A stretch of 64,000 nucleotides of DNA, taken from NCBI GenBank assembly GCA_963764345.1, contig CAVXSF010000009.1, forward strand, positions 131,116 to 195,115. The letters are read 5' to 3'. Origin of the DNA: an uncultured Bacteroidales bacterium. Its GTDB lineage: Bacteria; Bacteroidota; Bacteroidia; Bacteroidales; GCA-2748055. A program made the translations under genes and the position numbers. Within the stretch, counting starts at the first letter, position 1, and each line of letters starts with the position of its first letter. Under the pieces are notes generated by a model. That model saw nothing but the letters and a program-made list of their open reading frames with translations. It searched no databases and was not told where the DNA came from. Of the stretch, positions 4,043-58,108 are shown one piece after another.

Positions 4043-4066
4043 TGATTTAAAATTGTCTGTTCAATT

Positions 4067-18102: not shown

Positions 18103-18178
18103 AACAAGGCAGGTCCCTGCCACGGCCTCCTCCACAGCCAGTAAGCCGGAATCCGGGACCATATCCGGAGGCACATCC

Positions 18179-19797: not shown

Positions 19798-22700
19798 AAC
19801 CGCCAACCGGCATCATAAATAATTACGGGCAGGTTTTAATCCCGTCACGTAAAAGGAGAACGAACACAAGAGATATCGAATTATATCGAAGAAGACAAGG
19901 CCAGCCTTGTCCCAACGAAAAACAAAATATCCCCGCCCCAAAGGGGAAACCAAACCTGAGATAATGATACGGACGAACCTTATAAAAAGACGATTCCTCC
20001 CGGGACTGCTCCTGCTGCTCCTGGGAAGCTTCAATCTCTTTTCCCAGACACAGATCGACAGTGCGAAATATATCACCGTAAACCAGGATGTGATAACTGT
20101 ATACCTGAACGAGCCGGTGACCCTGACCACTGCTGCGGGCTGGTCTGTCAATGTGGGAGGTACCGTACATACCTATAATTCAAATACCCTCATACGTCCG
20201 AATATCCAGTACCTCTCGGGTAGTGGGACCAATACCATTAATTTCAGACTCTTATTCGTTTTTCCTAAAACAAATATTGAACCGCCCGATGTGGCTGCCG
20301 GAGTTACTGTTTCATATAACGGTAGTGGAAATACAAAAAATTTATTGAGTGTTTCAATGGGTGCAGACGGGCCTGTTACCGCAGTGAACGACCGGATTAT
20401 TACCTGTGATATGCTGACTTCAGTACAGTCAATTGGTGTGGAAAATAGTACAGGACCATGTCAACCAGTTTCTGTACAAATGAAAATTTCATGGAATTGG
20501 TCAATGGTCGCTAGAAATAGTACTCATTTTAATACAAATGGAATACAAGCAAGAACATCATGGAATGATCTGGCAAATACAAAAAATAACTACAATATGA
20601 CTGAAGATCCAATAAATTCAGGCAAATATGTAGTTGTAACTCCACTTTTCTCCTATTCTATTGAAAATACTTGTACCTTTAATTTAGCCGTATATCCAAT
20701 ACATCTTCATAAACCATCAGATCTACAACAAGCAAATCTATATGTGTTATGGGGAACTACTCAAGCAAGATTATATCTTCCAGCATATCGCTTAGATAAC
20801 CAACAACTAGGCGGTAACTTCCAAATCACACCAGCTACTGGCTCTAACCCAACACTTATTTGTCGTGGCAGTGATATTGACGGTTTCATTTTTCACGATG
20901 CCACCGAATTCAACTGTAACTCTGGCGTAGAACCCGACCGTCCCAACGAAGGCACCCGTTGGACGCAGTTCGTATATGGTACCCACTCAGGTGCCGGTAT
21001 CCCCAATGTATATATCGACGTTCACGGCACCATGGTCCAGATCACCGACAATGACGGTAATTTTATCCCCGGGCCCTTTACCGTCGATCCCAATACCGGG
21101 GCTACCGTGGCACCCTATGACACCGCCAGCGGCTTCTACGAAGGGCCGGTGGAAGAGATCCCGGAACCGGCCACAGGTCCTACCGCCCAGACTTTCCCCA
21201 TATACCACACCGGCAACTATTACAACGACCAGGTGAATGACGTGTTCGAGGTGACCCTCCGAAACTGGGGGCCGTGTAACAAATACATCGATTTTGAAGC
21301 CCCTATTGAAACCACTTCGGAATTGAGACTTATCGAAGCACCTCCCCCGCCCAACCCCGGAACGCACGATCATTGTTTCGGCTCTGTGCCGGGAACGATT
21401 TCGGTCACCGGTACCGGCGGGGATATCGACTGGTATTCCGACTCAACGCTTATCACCCTTATCAAAAACAACAGCAGCAGTTATACCCACGGTGAAACAG
21501 CGGTGGGCTCATATTATTACTGGGTAAACGAGACCGGCGGCAACGGCTGCGTCGGCCCCGACACCATGGTCACCCTCACCATCAACCCCCTCCCCCTGAA
21601 CAACCAGCCCGTCTCCGACCCGGTGATCTGTGCCGGCGAAACGGCTACCATCACCATCGGAACTCGGAGCCGGGCGTATCCTACCAGCTGCGTAACGACG
21701 CCAACGATAATCCCGTGGGCGCAGCACAGACGGGCACCGGCGGGACACTGAACTTCAGTGTCAGCCCCGGCTCCACCATTACCTATAATATCCTGGCTAC
21801 CAATATACCACAGGCTGCGACAATGAGCTCACAGACAAGGCCGTGGTTACCGTTCATCCCCTGGCCAACATCAGCAGCCAGCCGCCGAACCGGACCAGGT
21901 GCGAAGGCAACCAGCACTACCTTCTCCGTTACCGCCTCCGGTCCTATCGTCAGCTACAGGTGGTACGTAGACCCGAACACCGGCACCTTCTCGGCCATTA
22001 GCAACGGCGGCGTTTATACCGGCGCCACCACGGCCACCCTGCATGTCAACAACATCCCGGCGTCCATGAACAACTACAAGTACCGCGTGGAGATCATCAC
22101 CACCGGACCGTGCTCCAAAATCTCGAACGCCGGCACCCTGCGTGTCAACCCCGCTGCCACTCGACAAGAACGTGATCGCCGACGATTATTACCTCTGCTA
22201 CGGCACCTCCACCAGCATCGTGGTGCAGTCGTCGGAAAACGGCATCGCATACGATTTCCGCATCGGCAGCGACGTGAAGAACACCCAGACCGGCAACAAC
22301 GCCAACCTCGACTACCCCACCGGCAACCTCATGGCCGACACCACCTATAACGTCAATGCCCGTAATACCGTCACCGGCTGTTCACGCGTTCTCACCGACA
22401 AGCCCAGGGTAAATGTCAATCCCGATCTCACAGCCAATTTGTCCGTGGCACTCCCCGACATCTGCAGGACACGCCCATCGACCTGCCTTCAGTAACCGTC
22501 ACCGGCGGCTCCGGTCAATATTCCTACCTCTGGACCGGCACCGACGTCTATACAGCAGCAACAGCCAGAACCCGGCATCTTTCATGCCCTCTTCCGCCGG
22601 CGGACACAGCTATACCGTCACCGTCACCGACGAGGGCTTCCTCACCGAATCGGCCGGCACACGCACCTGTACGGCATCCGACAACACCAGCTTCACGGTC

Positions 22701-24053
22701 AACCCCATGCCCCTCGACCGGACCGTCCAGGTCACCCAGTCGAAGATCTGTTACAACACAACCACGGGCATACGCATCGTCAATTCCGAGAATAACGTTG
22801 AATACCAGGTGAAAAATGCCGCCACCGACGCCAACATTGGCGGTCCTGTCGCCGGTACGGGCGCTAACATCACCATTCCCACCGGCAACCTCACCGCCAC
22901 CACACAATATAAGGTTGTGGCCACACGGACCGACGTCACCCCCAATTGTGAGATCGTGCTGACCGACAAGCCTACCGTCACCGTCGACAATGACATTTCC
23001 ATCGTCGCTTCCGTCGATGATAATGCCATCTGTCTGGGCGAAACCATCAGCCTCAGCTCGACACCCTGCCGGCGGCACCACCAACTACAGCTTCACCTGG
23101 AGCGGTCCCGACGGTTTCAGCAGCGGCGCCGAAGATCCCGGTGTCCTACACACCGGTATCATCAGGCACTCCCCATACCTTCTCGCGTCACCGTGGCCGA
23201 CGATTTCAACCCGTCTGGCGGCGGCACCTGCCGGCCACCGATAATGTCACAGTGGATGTCTTTACACCCGCCTTCCAATGGCATCACACCTGTCGATCCA
23301 CCATCTGCGTGAACATCAACCAGGTGCTGAGCGGTAATCCTGTCGCAGGCAGCGGAGCTATCACCTCCCACTTATGGACCGGCGATACCGGTCCACTGTC
23401 GGCCGTTAGATATAGCGTCCCCGACCTTTAACACTGCCACACCCGGCGTATACAACCTTACTTATACCACTACCGACACACATGGCTGCCAGGCTGTCGA
23501 TAATGTGGCCGTTACTGCTTCAGGTCCACAGGTATCCCCGCTTCCGGGTGCCACTGCCGGCGTCTGTGCCGGGAAAGACCTGGCTATAGACGGAAATCCA
23601 TCCGGCGGACAGGCACCCCTGTCCCATCTATGGTCGGGAGATATCGGTCCCCTGAATAACGCCAACCTGCAGGCTCCTACATTTAACTCGCCTTCCACCG
23701 GTGTATTCAACCTTGTCTATACCGTTACGGATAATATCGGATGTAAAGCCTCGGGCCCGGTAGTTGTCACCGTCAGTGAAGTCAGCGCCAGTCCTCTTCC
23801 GGCATCACCCGCAAAGATTTGCACCGGCGAGGACCTGGCTCTCAACGGTAACCCCAGCGGCGGTACGGGCACCTACCCGATCCATCTCTGGTCACCCGGC
23901 GCCAACCCGCAGGCAGGAGTGCTGAGCGCCACCAACCAGCAGAATGTGACCTTCAACGCAGCCACTCCGGGTACCTATACCTTCGACTATTTTGTGCAGG
24001 ACCAGGCCGGTTGTAACTATACCGAAAGCGGCTACCAGGTAGTAGCCTACCTC

Positions 24054-26563
24054 AGCCCTGTTGCCGATGCCGGCAGCGGCGGCGATATTTGCGGACTTAC
24101 CTTCGGGCTGGCCGCAGCACCCAGCGTACCTGCCGGAAACCGTGTGAACTACACCGGCCAGTGGACAGTGACAAGCGGACCCGGAACAGCCTCCTATGCT
24201 TCCGGACAGAGCAGCGCGGTCACCGATGTTACCGTCACAGTCTATGGTACCTATGAATTCACCTGGACGGAGACCAACGGTAACGGACAGTGTTCCGACA
24301 GTAAGACCATCACGGTCAATTTCTACCAGCAGCCCACAGCCAATGCAGGAATCGACAAGGAGATCTGCGGCAGCAAATCGACAGCTCTCGCCGCCACAGC
24401 ATTCAACTATGCTGCTGCTCCCAACGTTAACTCTGGCAGTCGTACCTGGGCATACATCAGCGGCCCGGATGCCACACCCACATTTGCCAATGTCTCTGCA
24501 CCCAACAGCAATGTTTCGGTGGACTATTACGGTACTTACCAGTTCAGTTATACGGAAGATAACGGTGGTGTATGCACCGATGCCGATACCGTAACAATGA
24601 CCTTCTACGAAAGTCCTGTAACTTCTGCCGGCAACGACATTGAGGAATGCAATGCACTCACGACCAACCTCGCCGGCACCGCCTTCACATACGCCGGAGG
24701 TCTGAACCAGAATTCGGGCAGCCGCGGATGGGAATATATCAGCGGTCCCGACAACACGCCCACCTTCGGCAATACCACCAGCCCCACATCGGCTGTCACG
24801 GTGAACCGGTTTGGGCGTTACATGTTCCGTTTCGCCGAGACCAACGGCACATGCAATGATGCCGACACGGTGCAGGTATCTTTCTACGAGCAACCCACGG
24901 CCAATGCCGGTGCCGACTCATCGGTCTGCGGCAGTAAAACCATCACCCTCTATGCCAGCCCCTACGGATACCTTGGCGGAGGGAATATCAATTTCGGTGC
25001 AGGACTGTGGACCTATGTCAGCGGTCCCGATGCCACGCCCACCTTCTCCAACCCTGCCAGCCCGTTCAGCAGCGTAACGGTGGACTATTACGGCGTGTAC
25101 CGGTTCAGGTACACCGAGACCAACGGCACCTGCAGTTCATCCGATATCGTTCAGATCACCTTCTTCCAGGATCCTACGGCCAACGCAGGAATTGACAAGA
25201 ACGTTTGCGGCAGTCTGAGCACACCCCTGGCAGCTACGGCTTTCACTTACGCCGCAGCGCCGAATGTCAATTCAGGCAGCAGAACCTGGTCGTACGTTTC
25301 CGGCCCCGATGCCACACCCACCTTCAGCAGCCTTTCGAGTCCGACAGCCACCGTTACGGTAAACAACTACGGAACCTACCAATTCAGGTATACCGAGACC
25401 AACGGCACCTGCAGTGATGACGATATTGTACAGGTAAACTTTTACCAGCAACCCACAGCCAATGCCGGCATCGACCAGAAGATCTGCGATGCTCTGAACA
25501 CCAGCCTCACGGCCACAGCTTTCACCTACCGCCCGGCACCCGATGTGAATGCCGGCGTACGCCAGTGGAGTTATGTCAGTGGTCCCGACAACGCCCCGTC
25601 TTTCAGCGACCCGGCCGACCCGCATTCCTCCGTCACCGTCCTCTTCTATGGCATCTACCAGTTCAGATATACCGAGTCCAACGGCACCTGCAGCGATGAT
25701 GATGTTGTTCAGGTAACCTTCTCCCAGCAGCCCGTCGCCGATGCCGGCACCGATGTCCAGGTCTGTGCGGGGAAGACCGCCAACCTCACCGGTTCAGCCT
25801 TCCTGTATGCCGCCGGGCTGAATGAGAATTCGGGCACCCGCCAGTGGCAGTATGTCGACGGTCCCGATGCCACCCCTACCTTTGCCGCCCCGTCCAGCGC
25901 CACCTCCAGCGTCTCTGTGGACAATTACGGTACGTATCATTTCCGGTTCGTGGAAACCAACGGCACCTGCAATGATGCCGACACGGTGAAGGTCACCTAT
26001 AATGAAGAACCGTCAACTGATGCCGGCCCCAACCAGCAGGTGTGTGATGCCCTCACCACGGACCTGGCAGCCACATCCTATACTTACCTTCCGGCACCCG
26101 ACCAGAATGCCGGGACAATGACATGGTCGTATGTCAGCGGACCCGATGCCTCGCCGGTCTTCAGTGATGACGGCAGCCCTACTTCAGCTGTAACAGTGAA
26201 CGACTACGGCACTTACCGGTTTATGTTCACCGAGACCAACGGCAACTGTAGTGATGCCGACGTGGTAGATGTGACGTTCTATGAACAGCCCACTGCCAAT
26301 GCCGGCACCGACATCGACGAATGTGGTGTCCTGAGCACCAGTCTTGGCGCCACGCCATACAGTTACCTGGGAGCGCCAAACCTCAACTACGGCACCAGGC
26401 AATGGAGCTATGTGAGCGGTCCCGATGCGACACCGGTATTCACCAACCCGGCCAGCCCCACCAGCGGCGTGACTGTCGACACTTATGGCTCATACCAGTT
26501 CAGATATACCGAGACCAACGGCTCATGTCATGACGATGACATCGTCGTGGTTACCTTCCACCA
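24054..26563 (+). repeat. Intragenic tandem repeat: 9 copies of a 93-aa (279-nt) domain inside the giant gene
   Basis: The copies follow the consensus QQPTANAGxDxxxCGxxxxxLAATAFTYAAAPNVNSGSRTWSYVSGPDATPTFSxxxSPTSxVTVxxYGTYQFRYTETNGTCSDxDxVQVTFY. I counted them in the translation of 23505-30941. Confidence 0.85.
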
Positions 26564-28740
26564 GCTGCCAACCGTAACGCCTATGGCCGGCTTTACCGTC
26601 TGCCGCGACAGTGCGCTCAACGTCATTCCTGTAACCGGTACCTTCGGCGGCGGAGCTACCACCGCGTCGTGGTCTGTCCTTGCCCCGGCAACAGGAAGCA
26701 TTATTAATGAAAGCCAGACGGGGAATACCGTCACGGCCGAATACGTACCCGACTACGGTGACCTGGGCGGATCGGCAGTCTTGCGTCTCACCAGTGACGA
26801 TCCCGCAGGCCCCTGTGTGGCTGCATCGAATGATGTGGTGATCACCATCAATGAAGCTGCCTGGGTCGATGCAGGCCCCGACACCATCCAGATCGCTGCC
26901 GGTGCTACGGCTGCCCTTAACGGCATCGTTGCCGGTGGCACCAGCAACGGAACATGGACAGTCGTCTCCGCACCTGCGGGAGGCACCTTCACCCCCGGTC
27001 CCACTACCCTCAACGCAACCTTCGATCCGACAGCCACACAGGACGCCGTAGGATATGTCACCCTCCGGCTCACCTCCGACGATCCCGACGGTATACAACC
27101 CTGTGTGCCCGTATATGACGATATCGTCATCCATATCGGAGAGAACCCCGTTGCCGACGCACTTGCAGATACCACGATCTGTGCCAACGACACGATCTTC
27201 CTCAACGGCCGCATCAGAGGTTCTGCCACCAACGGCACATGGTCTGATCTCGATGGTGCCGGCTCGGTAGTATACAATACCCTTGTTGATGACAGCATCG
27301 TCATCGGCTATTACGTCACAAACGCCGCACAGATGGCTTCCGATGTGGCTCAGGGTTATGTCACCTTCAGGCTTACCACCGACGATCCCGACGGTGCCGG
27401 TCCGGTCATCGCCGACCACGATGATAAAACCGTAAGTATCAACCCGCTGCCAAACACCTCACCCATCAGCGGTCCGCCAGAAGCCTGTATCGGAACCAAC
27501 AACCTGTTCTACAACGTCACCCTTACACCGGGCTCCTACTACGACTGGACCTGGGCCGCTTCCCTCGGCACGAAAACCTTCGGCGGCGACGGCCTTAACA
27601 GCAATGCACTGGTAATCAACGCCTCACCCCTGCCCGCCAGCGACACGATCCGCCTCGTGGAAACAAACCAGTACGGCTGCGTCGGACAGGAGATCAAAAA
27701 GGCAGTACTAATCAAAGACAAAACACCGGTAACCACCGTTTCCGGACCTGCGGAAGTTTGCGACCGGCAGGAAAATATCGAATTCAGCATCCCGCAGATT
27801 GCCGGATCGACCTACCAATGGTTTGTACCCACAGGCTCCGGCATCATCTCCACTCCGAATATCGACTCCGTCTTTGTCAATTTCGGATCGATCAGCGGTA
27901 ATGTGAGTGTTACCGAAACCAATTCAGCCGGATGCGTCACCAACCACGACCCTCTGTTTGTGACTGTCAACCCGTTACCGCCGTCAAACCTCTCAGTGAA
28001 CAAAACCAATATCTGCCTCGGCGAGGCCGTCACCTTTACTGCCGGTCCTGCAGGAGCAGCCAATTATGAATTTTTCGTTGACAGCGTCAGCGCCCAGACC
28101 GGACCCGGGAACACTTACGTCACCGACAGCCTGACCGACGGGCAGCAGGTATTCGTGAATGTCACTACTATCAAGGGCTGCGAGAAAGCGAGCGCCGCTA
28201 TCACGATGAACGTCTACGCCAACCCGGTGGTAACCCTTACCAGCTCCGACATCGACAACACCATCTGCTTTGGCACAAATGTGCTCTTCACTGCCTCAGC
28301 TGCCGGAACAGTCGGTTACCAGTTCTTCCTCAATCATGCCAGCGTCCAGAACAGCGCCCTGAGTACCTACAACACCAGCGCGCTGAATGACGGCGATTCG
28401 ATCTACGTGATCGGAACCACCGCCCTCGGCTGTACCGGGGAGAGCAATGGCATCGAGACTTTGGTCAACCCGCTGCCCGTTGCGGTACTGAGCGGTGACA
28501 ATACAATATGTCCGGGCGATTCAACAGCCCTCACCGTCACCGTCACCACCGGCACAGGGCCTTACGACGTGACCATCAGCAATGGCGTGGGCACAATCTC
28601 AAATTACAACAGCGCCGATCCCATTTATATACATCCGCCTGCCAACAATGTTTACAGCCTCAGCCAGGTGACAGATGCCAACAGCTGTTCGGTGAGCATG
28701 CCGACGCCCAACCTTACGGGAACGGCCGTCATCAGCCTGA

Positions 28741-31700
28741 ACACCAATACCACCATCCTCATGCAGCCGCATGACGGTCTGACCTGCGAAGGCACCGACA
28801 CCAGTTTCTCGGTTGTCGTGACCGGCACTGCAGCCACGGTACAGTGGCAGTCCGACGACGGATCCGGCTTCACCGACCTGGCCAATATCGCCGGTGTATA
28901 CAGCGGCACAGCCTCTTCAACCCTCCGCATCCTCAACCCGGCCACAACACTCGACGGTTATACCTACAGGGCCGTGGCTACAGGCACCTGCGGACCCGCC
29001 GTAATCAGCGATACCGCTATGCTTACCGTCCTTGAAAAACCCGAAGTGACGAGTCAGCCTGCTGACGTGACCGAATGTGAAGACGGTGATGTATTCTTTG
29101 CCGTCTCGGCTGGTGTCACCACCGCCCCGGCATATCAGTGGCAGATCTTCAACGGATCGTCGTGGATCAGCCTGAACAACGGAATGACCTATTCGGGAGT
29201 AAATACCGATACATTGAGACTCACCGGCATCGCTTCAGGCTTGAACAACAGCCGTTACCGGGTTATGATATCCGGAAGCTGTGCGCCGGCCGTACCTTCA
29301 AACCAGGCCATACTAACCGTTCTTCAGAAGCCCGAAATCACCCTGCAGCCTTTTGATGCAGAAGAATGTGAAGGACAAGCCGTAACGTTTACCATCAATA
29401 CCGGTGTTACCACAATGCCGTCCATTACCTGGCAGGTATACGACGGCTCGTCGTGGGCCAATGCAAGCGGTGCAGCCTACAACGGGGAGACCACCCCAAC
29501 GCTGACCGTCAATCCTGTCATTTCAGCCATGGACGGATACCGTTTCAGGGCTGTGGTGAGCGGCACCTGTGCCCCGGAAGACACATCCTCGACAGCGGAA
29601 CTCACCGTTAAGGAGCTGCCCGAAGTGACGCTCCAACCCATTGATATGACTGCTTGTGAGGATGATACTGTGCATTTCGCGATTGATCCGGGCGTAACCA
29701 CCAACCCGTCGATCCAGTGGCAGGTCTCCACCGACAACGGCGTTAACTGGGCTGCTGTCTCCGGCATCCGATACAGTGGCGCCAACACGACCACACTCTA
29801 TATTAACGGCATCATTTCCACTATGCATAACTACCGTTTCAGGGCTGTGGTCAGCGGCGACTGCGGACCCGCAGCCACATCGAATGACGCTCTGCTGCAG
29901 GTGAACGAAAAACCGGAGATCACCCTTCAGCCTTTAAGCCAGGCTGTCTGTGAAGGTGATAATGCCATATACACCATAAATACCGGCGTGACCACCAGTC
30001 CGGTCATCCAGTGGGAGGAATGGAACGGCAGCGCATGGTCGGGTATTTCAGGCCCACCGTACTCCGGTGAGACCACTCCGACACTGACTGTCAATGCTGT
30101 GATTTCCACGATGAACCATTACAAATACAGGGCTTATCTCGAAGGCACCTGTGCCCCGCCGGTATATAGTGATCCGGCCGAGCTGATCGTACAGGAACAG
30201 CCGGAGATCATTGTCAACCCGAACGATACCGCCGTATGCGAAGGCCTTTCCGCCACCTTCAGTGTGGATGCCGGAGTGACGACAGCACCGGCCTTCCAGT
30301 GGTATGTCTCCACGAATGGCGGCAGCACATGGAATGCTGTTTCAGGAGTGGGTTACACCGGTATTAATACCGCCACCCTAAAGATCACCACTACCAACAC
30401 AGGTATGGACGGCTGGCTCTTCAGGGCCGAAGTAAGCGGCACCTGCCCCAACCCTGTGACCTCCACGCAGGCCGAACTCACCATTTACGAAATACCTGAG
30501 ATCACCACCCAGCCCGTCAGCGATACGGTATGCGAGGACGGTACGGCACATTTCAGCGTGGATGCCACGCCCACAACTGCACCAGCCTATTACTGGGAAG
30601 TGAACCAGGGCAGCACCTGGAATGCCGTTGCAGGACCCGATTATTCAGGCCAGGGGACGACAGACCTCACCATCACCAACGTCGTTTCCTCCATGTCGGG
30701 TTACCAGTACAGGGTCACCATCGCCGGGACCTGTAATCCGCAGGTCATCTCCAATGTAGCTAACCTCATCGTCAGGGAAAAACCGGAAGTCACCCTTCAG
30801 CCTTCTGATGCTGAGATATGCGAGAATGCACAATGCATCGTTCACCGTCAGCGCCGGTGTTACCACCAGCCCGCAGTATACCTGGGAAGTCTTCGACGGC
30901 AGCTCCTGGAGTACCGCCACCGGAGGTGTTTACAGCAATGAAACCACACAGGTTCTCAACCTGACCAACGTACCGGCGACAATGGACGGCTATATGTTCA
31001 GGGCCGTTATCTCCGGGATCTGTGCCCCTGAAGACACGTCTGATGCTGCAACACTCACCGTCAATGAACGGCCTGAGATCACTTCACAGCCGGTAAGCGT
31101 CACCGAATGCGAAGACGGCGATGTCTACTTTGCCGTTTCGGCAGGGGTCACCACCGTTCCTGCATACCAGTGGCAGATCTTCAACGGCGCGTCATGGATA
31201 AGCCTGAACAACGGACTGACCTATTCAGGGGTCAACACAGATACCTTAAGACTTACAGGCATCGTCTCATCGATGAACGGCAACCGTTACCGGGTAACGG
31301 TATCGGGCACCTGCTCACCGGCCGTTCCCTCGGACGAGGCCGTACTGACCGTTCTTGAAAAACCCGAAATAACACTTCAGCCTCTCGATGTTGTTCAGTG
31401 CGAAGGTCAGCCGGTGACCTTTACCATAAGTACAGGTATCACCACTGCACCGGCCATACAGTGGCAGGTCTACAACGGTTCAACATGGGCTGATGTAAGC
31501 GGCGCTTCCTACAGCGGGGAGACCACCACCACCCTCACCGTCGATCCAATCGTTATCAGCGATGAACGGCTACCTGTTCAGGGCTGTGGTGGGTGGCACC
31601 TGTGCACCGGAAGATACCTCGGCAACTGCTGAACTCACTGTGAAGGAACTGCCGGAAGTTACCCTCCAGCCTGGCGGTGTGACCAGCTTGCGAAGGCGAC

Positions 31701-34700
31701 ACGGTGAGCTTCAGACCGATCCCGGCGTCACCACCAATCCGTCCATCCAGTGGCAGGTATCTACCGACAACGGCACCAGCTGGGCCAATGTCTCAGGCAT
31801 AAGATACAGCGGAATAAACAATACAACCCTGTCTGTTAACGGTATCATTTCGGCCATGCATAACAACCGGTACCGGGCCGTAATCACCGGCGACTGCGGA
31901 CCGGCAGCCACTTCGAACGACGCCCTGCTGCAGGTGAACGAGAAACCCGAGTTCACCCTTCAGCCTGTCCCACAGGTGATCTGTGAAGGCGGGGATGCCA
32001 TATACACCGTCAACACCGGTGTGACCACCAGCCCGGTAATCCAGTGGCAGGAATGGAACGGCACGGCATGGTCCGATATCTCCGGCGGAATATATACCGG
32101 CGAAACCACGCCTTCACTCACTGTCCATAGCGTGACTTCAGGCATGAACAACTACCGGTACAGGGCATATCTCGAGGGTACCTGCACCCCGCCGGTTTAC
32201 AGTGATTCTGCAAGACTGACAGTAGAGGAACAGCCCGAGATCACTGCAGATCCGGCAGACACCGCCGTATGCGAAGGAATGCAGGCAACCTTTAGCGTCG
32301 ATCCCGGGGTAACTACCGCCCCGACCTTCCAATGGTATGTATCCATTGACGGAGGTACTAACTGGAATCCCGTTTCCGGTGTAGGATATGCCGGCATCAA
32401 TACTTCGACGCTGACCATCATCACCACCAATTCGGGGATGGACGGATGGCTCTTCAGAGCCGGGGTGAGCGGTACATGCCCGGGTTCCGTGACCTCTGCA
32501 CAGGCCGAACTCACCATTTATGAGATACCGGAAATCACCCTGCAGCCGGTGAACGATACGATATGTGAAGACGGTACAGCACAGTTCAGCGTCGACGCCA
32601 CGCCGACCACAGCACCCACCTATTACTGGGAAGTGAATGACGGAGGATCATGGTATGCCGCCAACGGCGTGAAATACAGCGGCCAGGGCACTAACACCCT
32701 GACGGTCTCCAACGTCACCTCCGCCATGTCGGGCTATCTCTACCGTGTCACCATAGGTGGCACCTGCAGTCCTGATGTACAATCCAACATGGCAAGCCTG
32801 ATCGTCAAAGAAAAACCCGAAGTTACCATGCAGCCTGCGGATGCAGAGATCTGTGAGAATGACGGCACGTCCTTCACGGTGAATCCCGGGGTGACCACCA
32901 ATCCTCAATATCTTTGGGAGGTGTATGACGGCAGCAGCTGGAATGCAGCCTCGGGACCCGTCTACACCGGTGAAACCACCGAGACGGTAAACCTTGTCGG
33001 GAGTACCTTCATCTATGGACGGATATCTATACCGGGTGGTCATCACAGGCGACTGTGCCCCGGCAGTCACATCTGCTTCCGCAGTGCTAACCGTCAACGA
33101 CAGGCCCGAAGTGACAGACGATCCGGATGACGTGACCTCCTGCGAAGGCGACACCGTGATATTCGCGGTATCTGCCGGCGTCACCACAACACCGGTGTAC
33201 AAATGGCAGGTATATAACGGCTCATCATGGTCGGTCATCACCGGCGGCAGCTACGGCGGTTACAACACCGACACACTGGTTATCAGGGGTACGATGTCCT
33301 ATATGAACGGGTATCAATACCGGGCGCTTGATCAACGGCAAGTGCTCACCTGCCGACACTTCGGCACCCGCCACCCTCATCGTAAGGGAGAAACCGGAAA
33401 TATCTGTACAACCTGTCAACAGTACCATCTGCGAAGATTCACCCACCGCTTTCGAGGTATCGGCAGGCGTGACCACCAGTCCGGCGTACAGCTGGGAAGT
33501 CGATCCGAACAGCGGAAGCTTTGTTCCGGCCAACCTTGCCGGCCACAGCGGCAGCACCACTTCCGTTCTGGATATAGCCTCAGGCACCAGCCTGATGGAC
33601 GGTTACCGGTACAGGGTCATCATCAGCGGTGCCTGTGCTCCTCCCGACACGTCGAATACCGTGGTTCTTCATATCGATGAAAAGCCCGAGGTTATCGTCG
33701 ATCCAAGGGATACTACTGTATGCGAAGGCTCCAATATCGCCTTCACTGCCGATCCAGGTGTGACCACCAGCCCGCAGTACCAGTGGGAAGTTGACGACGG
33801 CAGCGGTTGGGGCAATATTGCTGCCGGAGGCAACTTCATGGGCATCAACAGCCAGACACTTAATGTATACAATGTTGATTCCATCATGACCGGATACCTT
33901 TACCGGGTTGTAATCAGCGGTACCTGTGCACCCGCAGCCACCTCCCTGCCGGCAGAACTGACGGTGAACACCGCCCCGGTGATCAGCCTGAACCCGGATG
34001 ATGCCACGGCTTGCGAAGGCAGTAACGTGACTTTCAATGTGGCTGCCGTAGGTACGGCACCTGTTTACCAGTGGCAGATGGATAAGAACGATGGACTTGG
34101 ATTCCGCGACTTTGCCGATACGTCAGGTATTTACGGCGGGACCGGCAGTCCTGACCTCACGGTCTATAACGCCAACCGCAGGCTGCAGAACTACCGCTAC
34201 CGGGCCAGGGTGGAAGGCAGCTGTAACCCGTTTGCCGTTTCAGCCTATGCCGTTCTGCATATCAACACTCCACCGGAAATACTGAACCAGCCTTTACCGG
34301 CCACGATCTGCGAATATGGCAACGTCACCTTTAATATAAGCATTAACGGGAGCGGCCTTGCCTACCTGTGGCAGGAAAGTTCAGGCGGCACCTTCAAAGA
34401 CCTGGAAGATACGGCATCATTTATCGGCACAGGTACATCGTCGATGAGTATCTTTAATGTAAACCGTGACTTCAGCGGACACAGGTACCGGGTTATCGTC
34501 ACGGGAACCTGTAATCCGCCGGTAGTCTCGGGCGAAGCAGAGCTGACCGTCAAGACCAGCCCGGCCATCACCGCCCAGCCTGTCGATACTTCGGTATGCG
34601 AAAACGAGAATGCAGGCTTCAGTGTTACGGCCGAAGGATCGGATCTTGTTCTACCAGTGGCAGTACAACTCCGGAGGTGCATGGGCCTCATTGGCCAATG

Positions 34701-35126
34701 GCGGACCTTATGCCGGGGTCAATTCAACCGACCTGAGTATTACCGGCGCCGGCAACGGACTGAATGCTTACAAATACAGGGTAAGGATCACAGGAACCTG
34801 CGTACCTCCCGTCAATTCTGAGGAAGCCACGCTCAATGTCAATGCGAACCCGGTGATCATGCTCAATCCGGTTGATGCCCAGATCTGTGAGAACGGCTCA
34901 ACCAGCTTTACCGGAACTGCCTCAGGGCCTGATCTGGCATACCAGTGGCAGGTCTTCACCGGCGGTTCATGGCAGAACGTGACCGACGGGGATAACTACA
35001 GCGGAAGCCAGACCATAAGCCTTTCGGTCACCGACGCACCCGTATCATTCAACGGCAATCTCTACCGGCTGGCCGTGAGCAATGCCTGTACGGCCATCAA
35101 CAGTGGACAGGCCACGCTGACCGTCA
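28741..35126 (+). repeat. Intragenic tandem repeat: 22 copies of a ~96-aa (~290-nt) Ig-like domain, including a 7-domain (2,032-bp) super-repeat
   Basis: The domain consensus is EKPEITLQPxDxxxCEGxxxxFxVxxGVTTxPxYQWQVxxGSSWxxxxGxxYSGxxTxTLTVxxVxSxMxGYxYRxVVSGTCAPxxTSxxAxLTV. I counted 22 linker/Cys starts. The coordinates are approximate. Confidence 0.8.
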
Positions 35127-36977
35127 ATGCCAACCCGGTACCGGCCATCATCGGTGACGGCACCTTCCCGTTTGTCTGCGGCGGAACAAGTCTCAACATC
35201 GATGGTAATGCCACCGGCGGTTCGGGTACCTTCATCAGTCACAGCTGGACAGGTAATACAGAGCCTCTGAGTACTGTCACCGCGGAACAGACAGTCTTCA
35301 ATACCAATGTGGACGGTCTGTATACCCTCATTTACACTGTTACCGACAACAAGGGATGTACAGGGAAAGACACAGTAACCATCGAAAATAATTCCCCCAA
35401 TGCCCAGTTCTCATCTGATGCAGCGCCATCGTGCGGTTACAGGCTGGTCACTTTCACAAACAGCTCAACACGGGCTACATCGTACGAATGGCATTTCGAT
35501 GACGGGAGTCCGGTGGAAACCGGCATCAACGCCAGCCACGGCTTCGATAACTTCGATCCGCTGATCCGTTCCTACAATGTGAAACTCATTGCCGAATCGG
35601 CAAAAGGATGTATCGACAGTGCATCACAGGTTATCACCATCTACCCGAAGGTGGATGCCTCGTTCACCGTTGATCCCGACACCGGTTGTCAGCCCGTGGT
35701 TGCCATGATGGTATCGCTTCCGGGAGCAGCAAGCTACTACTGGGATTTCGGAGATAATACGCCGCAGGAGACCGGCGGGTACTTCGCTACCCATGAATTT
35801 ACGAATGTCTCGAACTCCACGAAGACCTATCATATCACACTTAAAACCACATCATTCTATGGTTGCGTGGCCACAGAGACGCAGAACATAACCGTCTATC
35901 CGCTGCCGACACCGAACTTTGCCGTATCACCTGTTCTCCAGACCTATCCTGATGCTACGGTTACAATTACCAACCTGGTAAATGCCGGCCCATGGACCTA
36001 TGAATACAACTTTGGTGACGGCACCACGGCATCGGTGGCCAATCCGGTCCATACCTATGCTGAGCCTGGAACCTATAAGATCACGCAAAAGATCAATGTG
36101 GGTTCCTGTACAGACAGTATTACCCAGACGGTGATCATCAGACCTGCTCCGCCGGTCGCCGGATTCGAAGTGCCGGGTCCGGGTTGTACACCACGCCAGA
36201 TTCAGTTCCTTAATACCTCGCGTGAATACAAACAGTTACCTGTGGGATTTCGGTGACGGAGGTATATCTACCAAGAAAGATCCAATCTACACTTACTTCC
36301 AGGAAGGAACCTTTGCCGTAACGCTGACCGTATCGGGTCCCGGCGGTTCCGATACCTACAAGGCCGACATCATCATCTGGCCAACACCCGCAGCCTTCTT
36401 TACACTGGCTCCCGATTCGGTTTACGTCAATGACAAGCCCGTAAAATTCTTCAACTATTCGTCAAGCGGCAGCAATTATTACTGGAACTTCGGCGATGTA
36501 GACGACCAAACCGGGCAGACGTCATCGACGAATACCACCGGCGATTTTGAGCCTACCCACGTGTATGAGTCAATCGGATTTAAAGACGTATTGCTGATTG
36601 CCAGCAATGAACATTGTGCTGACACTCTTCTCAAGAAAGACGCTGTGTACGTAAGTCCTGCCGGCGGATTACGTTTCCCGAATGTATTCAAGCCCAATTC
36701 CAACGGTCCGTCGGGCGGATATTACGATCCCAACGATCCGGCTTCCAAGAACTCCGTTTTCTTCCCTGGCGTTCTTGACCAGGTTCTCGAGTACCACCTG
36801 TACATTTACAACCGCTGGGGTGAACTCATCTTTTCGAGTGACAATGTCAATTTCGGCTGGGATGGATACGTCAACGGCACCCTGGCCAAACAGGGAGTAT
36901 ATGTATGGAAAGTGAAAGGGAAATATACCAACGGGAAGAACTTCGTAGAGGCGGGGGATGTGACGCTGCTGCATTAG

Positions 36978-38452
36978 GCGGAGTTAGGGAGTTAGGGAGT
37001 TAGGGAGTTAGGGAGTTAGGGAGTTAGGGAGTTAGGGAGTTAGGGAAGAGGATTGAGGGATTAAGGGATTTAGTGGGAAGAAAGGTGAAAGGCGAAAGGC
37101 GAAAGGCAAAAGTGAGGGATTGAGGGAGAATATCGAATGATTCGGAGACGGGAGAAGGATTTAGTAAATGCGATGGTGGGCTGGGTTTCCCCTTTAGGGG
37201 ATTAAGGGGTGAGCGTAGGGAGTTAGGGATTGAGGGATTGAGGGATTGAGGGATTGAGGGATTTAGTGGGAAGAAAGGTGAAAGGCGAAAGGCGAAAGGC
37301 AAAAGTGAGGGATTGAGGGAGAATATCGAATGATTCGGAGACGGGAGAAGGATTTAGTAAATGCGACTGGTGGGCTGGGTTTCCCCTTAGGGGATTAAGG
37401 GGTGAGCGTAGGGAGTTAGGGAGTTGAGGGATTGAGGGATTGAGGGATTGAGGGATTTAGTGGGAAGAAAGGTGAAAGGTGAAAGGCGAAAGGCAAAAGT
37501 GAGGGATTGAGGGAGAATATCGAATGATTCGGAGACGGGAGAAGGCCTTAGTAAATGCTACGGTGGGCTGGGTTTCCCCTAGGGGATTAAGGGGTGAGCG
37601 TAGGGAGTTAGGGAGTATAGGGATTGAGGGATTGAGGGATTGAGGGATTTAGTGGGAAGAAAGGTGAAAGGCGAAAGGCGAAAGGCAAAAGTGAGGGATT
37701 GAGGGAGAATATCGAATGATTCGGAGACGGGAGAAGGATTTAGTAAATGCGATGGTGGGCTGGGTTTCCCCTTTAGGGGATTAAGGGGTGAGCGTAGGGA
37801 GTTGAGGGATTGAGGGATTGAGGGATTTAGTGGGAAGAAAGGTGAAAGGCGAAAGGCGAAAGGCAAAAGTGAGGGATTGAGGGAGAATATCGAATGATTC
37901 GGAGACGGGAGAAGGCCTTAGTAAATGCTACGGTGGGCTGGGTTTCCCCCTTAGGGGATTAAGGGGTGAGCGTAGGGAGTTAGGGATTGAGGGATTGAGG
38001 GATTGAGGGATTTAGTGGGAAGAAAGGTGAAAGGCGAAAGGCGAAAGGCAAAAGTGAGGGATTGAGGGAGAATATCGAATGATTCGGAGACGGGAGAAGG
38101 CCTTAGTAAATGCTACGGTGGGCTGGGTTTCCCCTTAGGGGACTAAGGGGTGAGCGTAGGGAGTTGAGGGATTGAGTGGATTGAGGGATTTAGTGGGAAG
38201 AAAGGTGAAAGGCGAAAGGCGAAAGGCAAAAGTGAGGGATTGAGGGAGAATATCGAATGATTCGGAGACGGGAGAAGGATTTAGTAAATGCGATGGTGGG
38301 CTGGGTTTCCCCTTTAGGGGACTAAGGGGTGAGCGTAGGGAGTTATTGAGTTGTTGAGTTGTTGAGTTGTTGAGTTGTTGAGTTGTTGAGTTGTTGAGTT
38401 GTTGAGTTGTCCGTAATTCCTAATCAGTGTAATCAGTGTAATCAGTGGTGAA
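36978..38452 (+). repeat. G-rich mosaic repeat array R4: 7 tandem copies of a ~180-194-bp higher-order unit, between the giant gene and sprF
   Basis: It starts directly after the giant-gene TAG (36975-36977) with 8x GGGAGTTA. The unit consists of a GGGATTGA tract, TTTAGTGGGAAGAAAGGT, a GAAAGGC tract, AAAAGTGAGGGATTGAGGGAGAATATCGAATGATTCGGAGACGGGAGAAGG, and GGGCTGGGTTTCCCC(T)nAGGGGATTAAGGGGTGAGCGTAGGG. GAGCGTAGGG anchors lie near 37211, 37403, 37595, 37789, 37968, 38152 and 38331. The array ends with 8x GTTGAGTT, CCGTAATTCCTAATC, 3x TAATCAGTG and GTGGTGAA. Confidence 0.9.
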
Positions 38453-38657
38453 AAACTCGTTTGCTTTATTAATTCCGAATAAATATAGAATAATTCTGCA
38501 AATGTAACCTAACCAAACAGAATACGTTTAATTTTATGTATTCAAGAAACCAGACCTGATGTTCTAATTTTTTTTGATGATTAGCAATAGTAAACTATTT
38601 TCAGGTCTCGTTCCAAGAGTACGGTAAACGTTAATACCAGTCACTAAGATTACGGAT

Positions 38658-39635
38658 GTGAGAAGAAGCCTGACGACATTAATTCTCTTACTGTTATATT
38701 CTTATATTAGGGCACAGGATCCGCAATTCACCCAGTTTTATGCGAACAAGCTGTACCTGGCACCCTCTTTTGCCGGAGCCATTCAGCAGGACAGGGTATC
38801 GTTGAGTTATCGTAACCAGTGGCCTGAGATACCGGGGGTTTTTGTGTCCTATGCTTTTTCATACGATCATAACTTTTCCGCTTTTAATTCGGGAGTCGGC
38901 TTTCTTTTCCTTAGAGATGTTGCCGGTTCCGGAGATTTAAGCACCACAAATTTCGGGGTTTTATATTCTTATGATTTCAAGGTAAACAACTGGTGGCATA
39001 TACGGCCGGGCATTCATTTTATGTATACCCAGACGGGACTGGACTTCAATAAACTGATCTGGAACGATCAGATTTCACCTTCAGGGACAACGCCGACCAT
39101 TGAACAACCGACGCTGAATTCCAAAGCCGACGTCGATTTTTCCACCTCATTGCTGGTTTATTCCGATCAGCACTGGATGGGATTCACCGTCGATCATCTT
39201 CTGAAACCCAGGAATTCTCTGTATGACTCAGAAGAATTTGTCCCGATGAAACTTTCTGTTTTCGGTGGGACCCAGATCATCCGTCGGGGCAGGCTGCTCA
39301 GTCCGATCGATGAAACGCTGTCGCTCGCCTTTCTCTATAAAAATCAAAACAAAACCAACCAGCTCGATCTCGGGCTTTACTGGTATAAAGAACCGCTGAT
39401 GCTGGGGCTTTGGTACCGGGGTATCCCTCTTCTCAACCGTGAAAAGAGGGGTGATGCCATCGCCTTCCTTCTCGGCTATAAGATTGAAAATTTCAGCATA
39501 GGTTATTCCTACGATTTCACTATTTCAAAGCTGATCTCTTCCACGGGCGGGGCACATGAGATCTCGCTGGTATACCTGTTCAATACCACCCGCAAAAAAC
39601 AGAAAAGACACATGATTCCCTGCCCTGAATTTTAA
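38658..39635 (+). CDS. Type IX secretion system membrane protein, PorP/SprF family
   Basis: The start codon is GTG. The signal peptide is followed by AQDPQFTQFYANKLYLAPSFAG, the characteristic PorP/SprF N-terminal motif. The 325-aa length fits a beta-barrel of this family. It is positioned downstream of a type-B CTD cargo gene. Confidence 0.85.
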   Translation: MRRSLTTLILLLLYSYIRAQDPQFTQFYANKLYLAPSFAGAIQQDRVSLSYRNQWPEIPGVFVSYAFSYDHNFSAFNSGVGFLFLRDVAGSGDLSTTNFGVLYSYDFKVNNWWHIRPGIHFMYTQTGLDFNKLIWNDQISPSGTTPTIEQPTLNSKADVDFSTSLLVYSDQHWMGFTVDHLLKPRNSLYDSEEFVPMKLSVFGGTQIIRRGRLLSPIDETLSLAFLYKNQNKTNQLDLGLYWYKEPLMLGLWYRGIPLLNREKRGDAIAFLLGYKIENFSIGYSYDFTISKLISSTGGAHEISLVYLFNTTRKKQKRHMIPCPEF

Positions 39636-39735: not shown

Positions 39736-40359
39736 ATGAAACAACTCAGTCTAATTCTTAATGCTATCCTCATCATTGCCGTGGGTGTACTGTTTTATCT
39801 TCATTTCAGCGGGAAATCCAAAACAGCAGAACCGACCACTGTTACCACGGAACAAAACACGGATTCGCCTTCCGCCAATGCCGGGAATATCGCTTATGTT
39901 GAGATTGACACCCTGCTAAACAACATGAAGATGTATCAGGATCTTTCAGACCAGCTGGCTAAAAAGCAGAAAAAGATGGAATCTGAATTCGCGACCAAAT
40001 ACAAAAATTTCCAGAGTGAGGTCAGCGATTTTCAGAACAAAGTCCAGAAAGGTCTCATGACCAGCCGTGAAGCACAGGAACAGGAACAGCAATTATCGGG
40101 TAAAAGGATGGATCTTGAAAACCAGAGGAACGACTATCTCCGGCAGCTCCAGGAAGAAAATACGGTCAGCCAGAACAAGGTTATCGATTATATCATGAAT
40201 TACCTGAAAGATTATAATAAAGACGGCAGGTATGAATATATCCTCTCGTACAGTTTCGGCGGGGGCGTACTGTTTGCCGACAAGCGTCTCAACATTACCA
40301 GCGACGTGCTGAAAGGCATAAACGAGCGCTACAACCAGGAACAGACCACAACCAAATAG
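39736..40359 (+). CDS. OmpH/Skp-family periplasmic chaperone
   Basis: This 207-aa ORF has an N-terminal hydrophobic anchor and a long Lys/Gln/Glu-rich coiled-coil region (LADQLAKKQKKMESEFATKYKNFQSEVSDFQNKVQKG). Confidence 0.75.
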   Translation: MKQLSLILNAILIIAVGVLFYLHFSGKSKTAEPTTVTTEQNTDSPSANAGNIAYVEIDTLLNNMKMYQDLSDQLAKKQKKMESEFATKYKNFQSEVSDFQNKVQKGLMTSREAQEQEQQLSGKRMDLENQRNDYLRQLQEENTVSQNKVIDYIMNYLKDYNKDGRYEYILSYSFGGGVLFADKRLNITSDVLKGINERYNQEQTTTK

Positions 40360-40364: not shown

Positions 40365-41621
40365 ATGAGTATTGCCGGCCTTTATCTGAAGCGGCATGCG
40401 CCGGGCAACCGCCTTATCGATGCCGGGCCGGCAGAACATCTCAGGTACATTGTTGTGATACCGGCATATAACGAATCCGGGCTGCACCACAGCCTGGATT
40501 CGCTTTTTAAGACCCTGACTGTCGAGGAAGCAGTTGAGATCCTGGTAGTGATCAACTGGCCTGAGGACGCCCCTGAGGAGGTCAGGGAATTCAACATCCA
40601 TCTTTACAGGGAATACTCAGCACGATACGGCAACAGTCCGGATCCGGGTATACGCTGTCATTTTATCCTGGCAGGTGATCTGCCTGCCCGGTATGCCGGG
40701 GCAGGGCTGGCCAGGAAGATTGGCATGGATGAAGCAATCCGGCGTTTTGAGGCCGCCGGGACAGAGGACGGCATTATTCTGTCGTTTGATGCCGATACGA
40801 TTTGTGATCCGGACTATTTCACCGCCATCCGGGATCATTTCCTTTCACATCCCGGTACCTGTGGGTGCAGCATCCGTTTTGAACATCCGCTGCATGGCAC
40901 AGGATTCGAACCCGCGGTTTACAGGGCAGTGACTTTTTATGAGCTACATATACGATATTATCTCAGGGGACTGCGTTCGACAGGGCATCCGAATGTCTAT
41001 CATACCGTTGGCTCGGCCTTCGCGGTAAGGGCCGACGCCTATTGCCGTCAGGGCGGCATGAACCGCAGGAAAGCCGGGGAAGATTTTTATTTTCTTCAGA
41101 AACTGTTCGGGGCAGGTGATTTTTCAGAATGCAACAGCACAAGGGTGGTGCCGTCACCCCGGCCTTCCGACCGGGTAGTCTTTGGCACCGGACCTGCAAT
41201 ACGGGAATTTCTTCAGACCGGCCGGGAGCCATTGACTTTCCATCCGGAGACATTCAGGTTCATCGGACGATTTTTAAGCCGCACTGAAAAGTTGTATAAA
41301 ATAAGCGAGGCCGGGTACACTGCATTTTCAGATGAGACCGACGGCCTGATGGCTTCTTTTCTGCAGGCGAACCGGTTTTGGGAAGTTCTGACGGAGATCA
41401 ACTCCAACGTGTCGACGCCCGAAAGTTTCCACAAGCGGTTGTTAAGATGGTTCAATATGTTCAGGATGCTAAAGTTTTTGAACTCGTGCAAAAATGAATA
41501 TCCGCCAGTCGCGGTGACGGCTGCGGCGAAGACTATGTTGGAACACGACGGGATTGATGCTGAGGGTAAAACGACGACTGAGATTTTGGAGATATACCGG
41601 GAACAGGAGCTGAAACAGTGA
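40365..41621 (+). CDS. Family 2-type glycosyltransferase
   Basis: The N-terminal segment VVIPAYNES and a downstream FDADT acidic motif fit GT2. The ORF is 418 aa. Confidence 0.65.
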   Translation: MSIAGLYLKRHAPGNRLIDAGPAEHLRYIVVIPAYNESGLHHSLDSLFKTLTVEEAVEILVVINWPEDAPEEVREFNIHLYREYSARYGNSPDPGIRCHFILAGDLPARYAGAGLARKIGMDEAIRRFEAAGTEDGIILSFDADTICDPDYFTAIRDHFLSHPGTCGCSIRFEHPLHGTGFEPAVYRAVTFYELHIRYYLRGLRSTGHPNVYHTVGSAFAVRADAYCRQGGMNRRKAGEDFYFLQKLFGAGDFSECNSTRVVPSPRPSDRVVFGTGPAIREFLQTGREPLTFHPETFRFIGRFLSRTEKLYKISEAGYTAFSDETDGLMASFLQANRFWEVLTEINSNVSTPESFHKRLLRWFNMFRMLKFLNSCKNEYPPVAVTAAAKTMLEHDGIDAEGKTTTEILEIYREQELKQ

Positions 41622-44694: not shown

Positions 44695-44734
44695 ACTGGT
44701 TGATTAACAGTTGGATTGTTAGTTAGTTGATTGG

Positions 44735-44767
44735 GGCTGTTTTCGTTAAGAAGACAGCCTTTTTTTT
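44735..44767 (+). terminator. Rho-independent terminator after the SOD gene
   Basis: The stem pairs GGCTGTTTT with AAGACAGCC (one mismatch) around the loop CGTTAAG. A run of 8 T follows. Confidence 0.6.
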
Positions 44768-44877
44768 GCTATATGTTCCACTTCTTTCATAACCCTCAGG
44801 GGGAGTAAGCGATCTGTTGTTGTCAAAACTGCATGAAGCCAGCAAGGCAAGACCCGCCGATAAATAAAATATAGCTT

Positions 44878-58097: not shown

Positions 58098-58108
58098 TAA
58101 AAATATAT

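Follow-up and report, generated by a model that had tools for sequence, protein, structure and literature searches.

A block of G-rich tandem repeats occupies positions 36978-38452 of a 64-kb stretch of Bacteroidales DNA (contig CAVXSF010000009.1), referred to as the window, whose numbering is used throughout unless another locus is named. The array lies between a giant adhesin-like gene with a type-B sorting domain of the T9SS (type IX secretion system), referred to as the cargo gene, and sprF, a gene of the PorP/SprF family. We consider it rather probable that one copy of a genome-wide, modular, G-rich intergenic repeat family has expanded in a strain-specific way to give this array, and that sprF is read separately from it. 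The array fills the first bases after the cargo stop codon, where relatives carry a terminator-like hairpin, and it is not specific to type IX secretion. The original prediction assigned it a role in setting the cargo:SprF expression ratio, which was not borne out: members of the same family are found in four unrelated gene gaps of the window, in two of them antisense to the genes.

Structure and composition of the array

The array is non-coding and consists of seven tandem units of 178-194 nt each, with a mean column identity of 92% in the alignment. Tandem Repeats Finder reports it at 37033-38345 (period 178, 7.1 copies, 91% matches, score 2094); the predicted G-rich block of seven ~185-bp units following the cargo stop was thus confirmed both by this program and by the unit alignment. 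A second period of 363 bp (3.5 copies) is present in the same output and indicates a two-unit higher order of the array; two unit subtypes alternate and the variants are ordered. The length of the units differs chiefly by the count of AGGGATTG octamers at the unit start. Outside the microsatellites, units 1 and 4 are identical and unit 7 departs from unit 1 at a single position; the expansion of the array is therefore recent and younger than the split of the strains.

The composition of the + strand is 41.6% G, 7.5% C and 70% purines, and the GC skew is +0.69 in the array vs about -0.05 in the remaining window. Concerning the potential to form G-quadruplexes (G4), 15 merged G3N1-7 stretches are found on the + strand of the window and none on the - strand; 14 of the 15 fall in repeat arrays and six in the array 36978-38452, where G4-aware folding placed quadruplexes in five units.

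Each unit ends in a conserved 31-nt core. The T run of its CCCC(T)nAGGGG segment varies as had been predicted (3, 2, 1, 3, 2, 2 and 3 T in units 1 to 7) with both arms kept intact; the arm of unit 5 has one extra C, five in total. The description of the repeats as hairpin-containing holds in part: a CCCC/GGGG stem exists, but it is only 4-5 bp long (or alternatively 8 bp, through a second GGGG) and its energy is unremarkable, with a z score of -0.4 for the core alone. Folding of whole units is no better than that of shuffled sequences on either strand (z +1.0 and -0.5). The plan of the element would accordingly read as a left end (GGAGTTAG)n, at least one inner unit and a right end (GAGTTGTT)n ... 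AATCWGTGGTGA, the inner unit being composed, on this plan, of 7-8-nt microsatellites and the 31-nt core with its tiny CCCC/GGGG hairpin.

Related arrays in the window

Five related arrays, comprising the present one and those designated a, b, c and e (Table 1), occupy 4.7 kb of the window in total (7.4%). They are mosaics of shared modules, namely the AGGGATTG and GGGAGTTA octamers and the GAAAGGC and GAATATC heptamers. The shared module GGAGACGGG has 13 matches in the window vs 0.5 expected, and the core (TTAGTAAATGC..GGGTTTCCCC-loop-GGGGAYTAAGGGGTGAGCGT) has 11 matches vs 0.01 expected. The left ends of the arrays are of the GGGAGTTAGGG type; the right-end motif (AATCTGTGT)n-AATCWGTGGTGA has five matches vs 0.58 expected and closes four of the five arrays.

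The genes that flank the other arrays are mutually unrelated. Three of these arrays lie between DCC1-like and flavin reductase genes, between nitroreductase and extracytoplasmic function (ECF) sigma factor genes, and between RNase E/G and DsbD genes; the remaining one lies between the gene of a small PKD/CHU_C protein and the giant gene. Arrays a and e have minus-strand genes on both sides, to which their G-rich strand is antisense. Also, other loci of the same species contain G-rich and C-rich arrays side by side, in both orientations within 2 kb. Since both orientations occur, an RNA-sense-dependent function is unlikely for the family as a whole. A tie between orientation and replication was rejected, given the two orientations within 2 kb and a background skew (about -0.05) that is uninformative.

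The elements start at, or within a few bases of, the stop codons at 15598, 19063 and 36977. The first modules of array b supply the last codons and the stop (15596-15598) of the nitroreductase open reading frame (ORF); in array c, the first repeat encloses the stop of the small CHU_C gene (19061-19063). Palindromes are found in both of these arrays: array c contains a perfect, GTAG-tagged one, GTAGAGACGCCAT-GT-ATGGCGTCTCTAC, at 19738-19765, which is similar to repetitive extragenic palindromes (REP), and related CGTAGA...hairpin modules are present in each unit of array b, e.g. at 15826-15848. A further locus, L008, has at 2620-4440 an inserted transposase gene of the IS256 family (Transposase_mut, 390 bits), with a G-rich stub on one side and a C-rich array on the other; the site was a head-to-head array pair before this insertion.

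Variation among strains

Three loci of the same species were compared with the window: L001 (an ENA contig), and L014 and L017, which come from the metagenome-assembled genome (MAG) MFD02416.bin.1.410 (CAVTBM01), a GTDB representative. Flanking DNA is 95-96% identical across these assemblies and the SprF protein of L001 is 100% identical to that of the window. At the array site, seven units are found in the window, two in L001 and one in L017, and all three share the left and right ends. Where array b lies, L014 has the end modules only and the units are gone; where array c lies, the interior differs. Replication slippage and unequal recombination between units would be the processes by which unit number and microsatellite length change.

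Based on the best-matching units, divergence is 1.4-2% from L001 and about 6% from L017 (~148 sites); the 4-fold degenerate sites of sprF, ompH and the glycosyltransferase gene differ by 3.6-6.8% (L001) and 10.8% (L017). The divergence of the units is similar to, or somewhat lower than, that of the 4-fold sites, which over ~148 sites amounts to no claimable constraint.

An array size that is merely an assembly artefact, with tandem repeats mis-sized in metagenome assembly, is very improbable in our judgement. The three assemblies do disagree in the number of units, T and C runs of differing length are what long-read errors typically produce, and the adjacent giant gene has 47 indels of 1-2 bases in 9.25 kb when compared with L001. 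However, none of these indels lies in a homopolymer, and the downstream 6.1 kb shows just 4 indels against L001 (4-5 across assemblies). The units themselves are non-identical, with ordered variants, two alternating subtypes and the 363-bp higher order.

Orthologous spacers and the sprF promoter

The original prediction looked to orthologous loci for a check, its case failing if they lacked any spacer and behaved identically. A spacer between the cargo gene and sprF is present in all five independent relatives compared (232-426 bp), and the array is missing from all five. In four of them a strong hairpin is found directly past the cargo stop (-19.9, -27.6, -26.5 and -51.8 kcal/mol), with z scores of -4.8 to -9.4. 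The hairpin of L003 is a canonical terminator, and L003 is the sole relative flagged by a strict terminator scan; the hairpins of the other relatives rest on folding energies, the strict scan not having flagged them. Because four of the five relatives have a strong hairpin at the cargo stop, the cargo gene and sprF are probably not co-transcribed in relatives.

The hairpin of L020, whose SprF is 80% identical, is a 115-nt palindrome after the cargo stop (2376-2490) with (GTTACN)n microsatellite arms (-51.8 kcal/mol, z -9.4); it resembles a terminator made of short tandem repeats. One population of the L003 species has an insertion sequence (IS) with a broken DDE transposase in the spacer, and its sprF is intact. 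At L002 (7906-9926), from a related species, the IS in the spacer has a split DDE_Tnp_1 transposase. It is flanked by a direct duplication of ~190 bp, which includes the terminator and a promoter-like island and is far above a normal target-site duplication.

Between the array and sprF the window contains a unique AT-rich spacer (Table 1). Across eight aligned sequences from six lineages, G[TC]AACC-N15-CGT is the sole conserved island in the last ~230 nt before sprF; the pattern occurs twice in the window vs 0.56 expected. The conservation of this island, and its position downstream of the array, make a separate sprF promoter very probable there, from which the gene would be transcribed; this supports the part of the original prediction that allowed for an independent sprF promoter in 38453-38657. 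AAC at -35 and CGT at -10 are hallmarks of ECF-sigma promoters, which the island resembles. It also overlaps TACGTTTA and TAATTTTA (TACATTTG in L020), which are near-matches to the -7 box of the Bacteroidota sigma-A, and this overlap leaves the sigma assignment either way. A candidate for the AAC...CGT island is the ECF sigma factor encoded at 17136-17717, whose gene is in the neighbourhood of the locus and, in L022, syntenic with sprF. In Flavobacterium psychrophilum, a CGT-box motif before several T9SS genes has been attributed to an ECF sigma factor (PMC9723704).

Genes flanking the array

The predicted layout, in which an ORF with a type-B CTD (C-terminal domain) is followed by the array and then by a PorP/SprF gene, was found as described: the cargo gene ends with TAG at 36975-36977 and sprF begins with GTG at 38658. 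The ORF 36222-36977 matches Pfam CHU_C with 33.5 bits (cut-off 27), which identifies a type-B sorting domain; its match to TIGR04131 is below the cut-off (27.6 vs 35 bits, E 2.4e-6). The sprF product matches PorP_SprF (PF11751) with 214 bits and TIGR03519 with 226 bits (cut-off 90.6). Exact look-ups of the SprF (start retyped as M) and OmpH proteins of the window gave no match, and the locus was reached through a homologue search, in which many metagenomic relatives have SprF proteins with 73-88% identity. The order cargo(CHU_C)-sprF-ompH-glycosyltransferase is kept in all relatives examined.

The giant gene named in the original prediction, an Ig/PKD adhesin-like gene, is not a single ORF in the window. 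Its frame is broken there (19853-36977, + strand): ten stop-free pieces overlap in a chain, the frame changes at least eight times and one stop lies in frame; the cargo orthologue in a related species is 6495 aa long. A +1 insertion, CCTCGCGTG (a C at about 36238), is common to the window and L001 and absent from L017, where the final 1.08 kb of the cargo gene is in a single frame. The gene is either decaying in part of the population or located in a badly polished part of the assembly.

In the window (17136-19063) and in L022 (3646-5574), an ECF sigma gene is grouped with an ORF that may encode an anti-sigma factor and with a small cargo gene of the PKD/CHU_C type. In L022 this small cargo gene is directly upstream of sprF, so that in the window the giant gene has the appearance of an insertion between the two. 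Further downstream, a canonical intrinsic terminator is present after sod at about 44733-44768. A peptidase M19 gene lies between sod and an acyltransferase gene in L001, L002 and L022; at about 44800 the window is without this segment of ~1.1 kb (L001 16155-17247).

Occurrence of the core in other genomes

GTDB representative genomes were scanned with the exact pattern TTTCCCC-N1-5-GGGGAYT-N1-3-GGGGTGAGCGT. Matches were found in Thermophagus xiamenensis DSM 19012, the same-species MAG, MAG GFS_5746 and MAG Co_metawrap_1956. Thermophagus xiamenensis has three tandem core units of 116 bp (NZ_FONA01000018.1, L006 7446-7820), which start five bases past a stop codon; an (ATTAGTG)n microsatellite comes next, and after it a gene for a 2-hydroxyacid dehydrogenase. 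In MAG Co_metawrap_1956 the core is central in a dispersed element of ~190 bp with terminal inverted repeats (TTAGTGNCNNTAAGAAAAC), similar to a MITE (miniature inverted-repeat transposable element). Four metagenome contigs of the Joint Genome Institute (JGI) carry the core, all in the MITE form.

The copies were fetched by an exact pattern, which in part dictates their identity; what is informative is the recurrence of a specified pattern of 25 nt across genera in differing repeat architectures. No core was found in viral contigs, phage records or plasmid records, and a mobile origin was rejected on this basis. A literature search on the repeat sequences themselves found nothing relevant.

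Copies of the MITE-like element with TTAGTGNCNNTAAGAAAAC and a central core are present in L007 (about 1790-1990), L009, L015, L025, L026 and L028. Their 5' ACGCTCA-like segment could pair with TGAGCGT of the core, and two copies have G-U-compatible changes.

Coding potential, RNA structure and repeat class

The + strand of the array contains no ORF of at least 40 aa, its units being closed in all + frames. On the - strand there are two ORFs, of 92 and 95 aa, in which the repeat is translated into low-complexity Pro/Ser/Leu sequence. No tRNA genes were found.

That the array is a small structured RNA gene, or an RNA motif acting in cis, repeated in tandem with one copy per unit, is in our view highly improbable. 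Such a reading could point to the exact conservation of the core across genera, and to loops that vary (TA, TTA, TTTA, CAC, TAC, GAC, TTC and TTAA) between CCCC/GGGG arms that are kept. Set against this, Rfam gives no match at the gathering threshold across the window, and E values of up to 10 or 1 yield only chance-level miRNA matches; four other loci are likewise without a match, permissive thresholds included. One weak chance-level match is also explained by the imperfect 22-nt inverted repeat upstream of sprF (Table 1). The units fold like shuffled sequences, as described above, and RNAalifold on 16 diverse core copies predicts five pairs only, without compensatory change or covariation. 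The Bacteroidota -7 box TAnnTTTG is absent from both strands of the array, and sigma-70-type sites are not in excess. Also, the orientation of the elements relative to transcription goes both ways.

Concerning the class of the repeat, the units are tandem and polymorphic in copy number among close strains (three metagenome assemblies), as in an intergenic minisatellite or variable-number tandem repeat (VNTR). The architecture is BOX-like, in that shared ends bound a variable number of inner units at several loci. A CRISPR array was rejected, since the full unit of 178-194 bp repeats at 92% identity without unique spacers. No terminal inverted repeats linking the ends of the array were found, which excludes it from the MITEs. 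Two features of REP sequences and bacterial interspersed mosaic elements (BIME) were also looked for in the array and rejected. The only hairpin, of 4-5 (alternatively 8) bp with a z score of about 0, does not correspond to a tagged palindrome of 20-40 bp with GTAG or CGTC; and orientation does not alternate, as all seven units and all core copies in the window are direct repeats on the + strand.

Comparison with known systems

By sequence, the array is assigned to none of the four repeat systems to which we likened it (BOX was compared by architecture only). It is closest to BOX by architecture, to REP/BIME by its mosaic composition and 3' position, to the mycobacterial interspersed repetitive units (MIRU) by population behaviour and to heptamer repeats by its microsatellites. 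The MIRU of Mycobacterium tuberculosis are 46-101 bp long and often contain small ORFs that keep translational coupling. As is generally known of MIRU VNTRs, they are tandem units between co-directional genes, at many loci and with polymorphic copy number, and the array shares these traits. Unlike MIRU, the units of the array are closed in all + frames, and the downstream gene apparently has its own promoter.

BOX elements of Streptococcus pneumoniae (boxA-boxB(n)-boxC; PMC3049150) are described as dispersed intergenic repeats with fixed ends and variable inner modules, strain-variable and located beside unrelated genes. The same holds for the array and its family, with one, two or seven units at one site here. 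The BOX units of that description are about 45 bp long, whereas those of the array are about 185 bp and are built of 7-9-nt microsatellites. Compared with BOX as outlined there, the array also differs in its extreme strand asymmetry (42% G, 7.5% C) and in having no terminal inverted repeats and no stable overall fold.

REP/BIME (PMC2817692, PMC3733652) and the array family are both mosaics of short modules, found mostly downstream of coding regions, with tandemly reiterated clusters and differences between strains. The array lacks the tagged 20-40-bp palindrome and the alternating orientation of REP/BIME; arrays b and c do hold tagged palindromes. GTAG repeats are reported from Proteobacteria, Cyanobacteria, Chloroflexi and the Planctomycetes-Verrucomicrobia-Chlamydiae (PVC) group, and from Bacteroidetes only CGTC repeats (PMC3733652).

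Assemblages of heptamer direct repeats (TAACTGA etc.) occur between the genes of certain Bacteroidetes, Cyanobacteria and Beggiatoaceae (MacGregor 2015, PMC4679880). Like the arrays, they are long intergenic sets of differing 7-9-nt direct repeats with a sporadic distribution across taxa, and close relatives with the same gene neighbourhood lack the repeats. TAACTGA repeats are absent from the arrays studied here, which, unlike the heptamer assemblages, have a higher-order unit of 178-314 bp, a 31-nt core that is not a microsatellite and defined end motifs.

The gene pair itself is comparable to the sprB-sprF systems, in which a gene with a CHU_C domain is directly upstream of a PorP/SprF gene; here ompH follows. 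In Flavobacterium, sprF is part of the remFG-sprCDBF operon, whereas the present lineage has a gap of 230-430 bp with a hairpin and a promoter-like island. In this species, unlike the Flavobacterium operon, the gap between the cargo gene and sprF also holds a repeat element. Overall, the array is an interspersed modular intergenic repeat, and both the family and its conserved core appear to be undescribed.

Function of the array

The regulatory role originally proposed, that of a spacer which sets the cargo:SprF ratio by attenuating, stabilising or insulating a common transcript of cargo gene and sprF, is decidedly unlikely. It would suit the adjacency of cargo and porP/sprF-like genes, for which the operon containing both sprB and sprF in Flavobacterium is a precedent (remFG-sprCDBF; PMC9723704; PMC9143113). 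No intrinsic terminator is predicted in 36800-38800, the sense strand has six stretches with G-quadruplex motifs and quadruplexes in five units, and a strain-variable number of units is to be expected of a tunable element. Yet unit numbers of seven, two and one in three assemblies, and orthologous loci without any array, count against the setting of a ratio. Relatives have a hairpin or terminator at the cargo stop, and one of them tolerates an IS in the same spacer; the conserved promoter-like island is downstream of the array; and the family is present in unrelated gene gaps, in both orientations. Also, the frame of the cargo gene is broken in the window, so that an intact cargo, the partner needed for any tuning against SprF, is missing there.

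The family could alternatively be a substitute for intrinsic terminators, i.e. a 3'-end insulator or stabiliser located right after stop codons, which in sense orientation would act through G-quadruplexes or R-loops and in antisense through C-rich, Rho-loading RNA, with the core as a site for a protein or RNase. We regard this as unlikely, though conceivable. Elements begin near the stop codons at 15598, 19063 and 36977, as does the Thermophagus array; relatives have a strong hairpin at the same site; canonical terminators are used elsewhere in the genome, e.g. after sod; and the G4 motifs are biased in strand and place (15 on + vs 0 on -, 14 of the 15 inside arrays). The REP elements of E. 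coli provide a precedent, being presented as context-dependent regulators in the 3' untranslated region (UTR) in a preprint (bioRxiv 10.64898/2026.03.23.713779). However, a single unit would serve as well as seven, so the expansion is left unexplained; the units show no clear excess of conservation over 4-fold degenerate sites, and the core hairpin is weak and without covariation. A more elaborate form of this idea, which we think quite unlikely, is that of an undescribed, bounded, G-quadruplex-prone mosaic family of the Bacteroidales, in which the core is a dedicated protein site, the elements replace terminators and the number of units modulates read-through. The partner that binds the core could then be, for instance, a transposase or recombinase, a nucleoid factor or one that binds RNA.

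We favour the strain-specific expansion of one member of a dispersed repeat family, upstream of a separately transcribed sprF. Under this reading any effect of the array would be at most generic, that of a longer 3' untranslated or intergenic region, a spacer or an insulator, and the G-quadruplex-prone sense strand may hinder read-through. Several points weigh against it. That the core is exactly identical across genera suggests some sequence-specific function, for which a sequence-specific protein partner is the obvious guess; a purely neutral model leaves this identity unexplained. Both type-B-CTD genes of the window (with ends at 19063 and 36977) are directly trailed by an array, which could exceed coincidence. 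There is no terminator-like site in 36800-38800 of the window, and a G-rich RNA with 7.5% C is a poor loading site for Rho; read-through into sprF, and thereby an effect of array length, are thus possible. The unit counts, moreover, rest on metagenome assemblies, in which the length of tandem repeats can be wrong.

Table 1. Positions of the repeat arrays, their modules and the neighbouring genes in the window
Feature	Position	Strand	Remarks
Array a	9300-9550		G-rich + strand
Array b	15556-17005		G-rich + strand; 314-bp units x 4.5
Array c	19052-19765		G-rich + strand
Giant adhesin-like gene, last open piece	36222-36977	+	PKD domains and CHU_C (type-B T9SS); TAG 36975-36977
Left-end microsatellite (GGAGTTAG)x8.4	36980-37046	+	two bases past TAG; matches G-quadruplex motif G3N5
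Units 1-4	37033-37216, 37217-37409, 37410-37601, 37602-37795	+	order within unit: (AGGGATTG)n; (GAAAGGC)n; GAATATCGAATGATTCGGAGACGGG; core TTAGTAAATGC..GGGTTTCCCC(T)nAGGGGAYTAAGGGGTGAGCGT
Units 5-7	37796-37973, 37974-38157, 38158-38336	+	same order
31-nt core, TTTCCCC-loop-GGGGAYTAAGGGGTGAGCGT, first copy	37186-37216	+	
Core, later copies in the array	ends at 37409, 37601, 37795, 37973, 38157, 38336	+	
Core, copies outside the array	19686-19716; four places in 58349-58832	+	
Right-side microsatellite (GAGTTGTT)x8.9	38340-38410	+	Tandem Repeats Finder
(TAATCAGTG)x3 closing in right-end motif AATCAGTGGTGA	38421-38451	+	(TAATCAGTG)x3 at 38421-38447
Right-end motif AATCAGTGGTGA, other arrays	9539, 16993, 58907		closes these arrays also
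Unique AT-rich spacer before sprF	38453-38657	+	33-35% GC, 205 bp
Conserved promoter-like island GTAACC-N15-CGT	38504-38527	+	~130 nt upstream of GTG
Imperfect 22-nt inverted repeat	38538-38559 / 38601-38622	+	77% complementary, 41 nt apart; presumed sprF leader
sprF (PorP/SprF family)	38658-39635	+	GTG start
ompH	39736-40359	+	downstream of sprF
Glycosyltransferase-like gene	40365-41621	+	after ompH
Array e	58100-58925		G-rich + strand

Implications

The array does not serve as evidence that the ratio between a type IX secretion cargo and SprF is under special control, and the locus can be annotated as a variable intergenic repeat followed by a probable sprF promoter. Arrays of this kind break or mis-size assemblies and yield spurious ORFs on the C-rich strand, and they could act as strain markers. 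The species devotes ~7% of the window to fast-evolving, strand-asymmetric and G-quadruplex-prone repeats, where its relatives hold terminators. The core is also found in a cultured organism, Thermophagus xiamenensis DSM 19012, and its function is therefore testable there.

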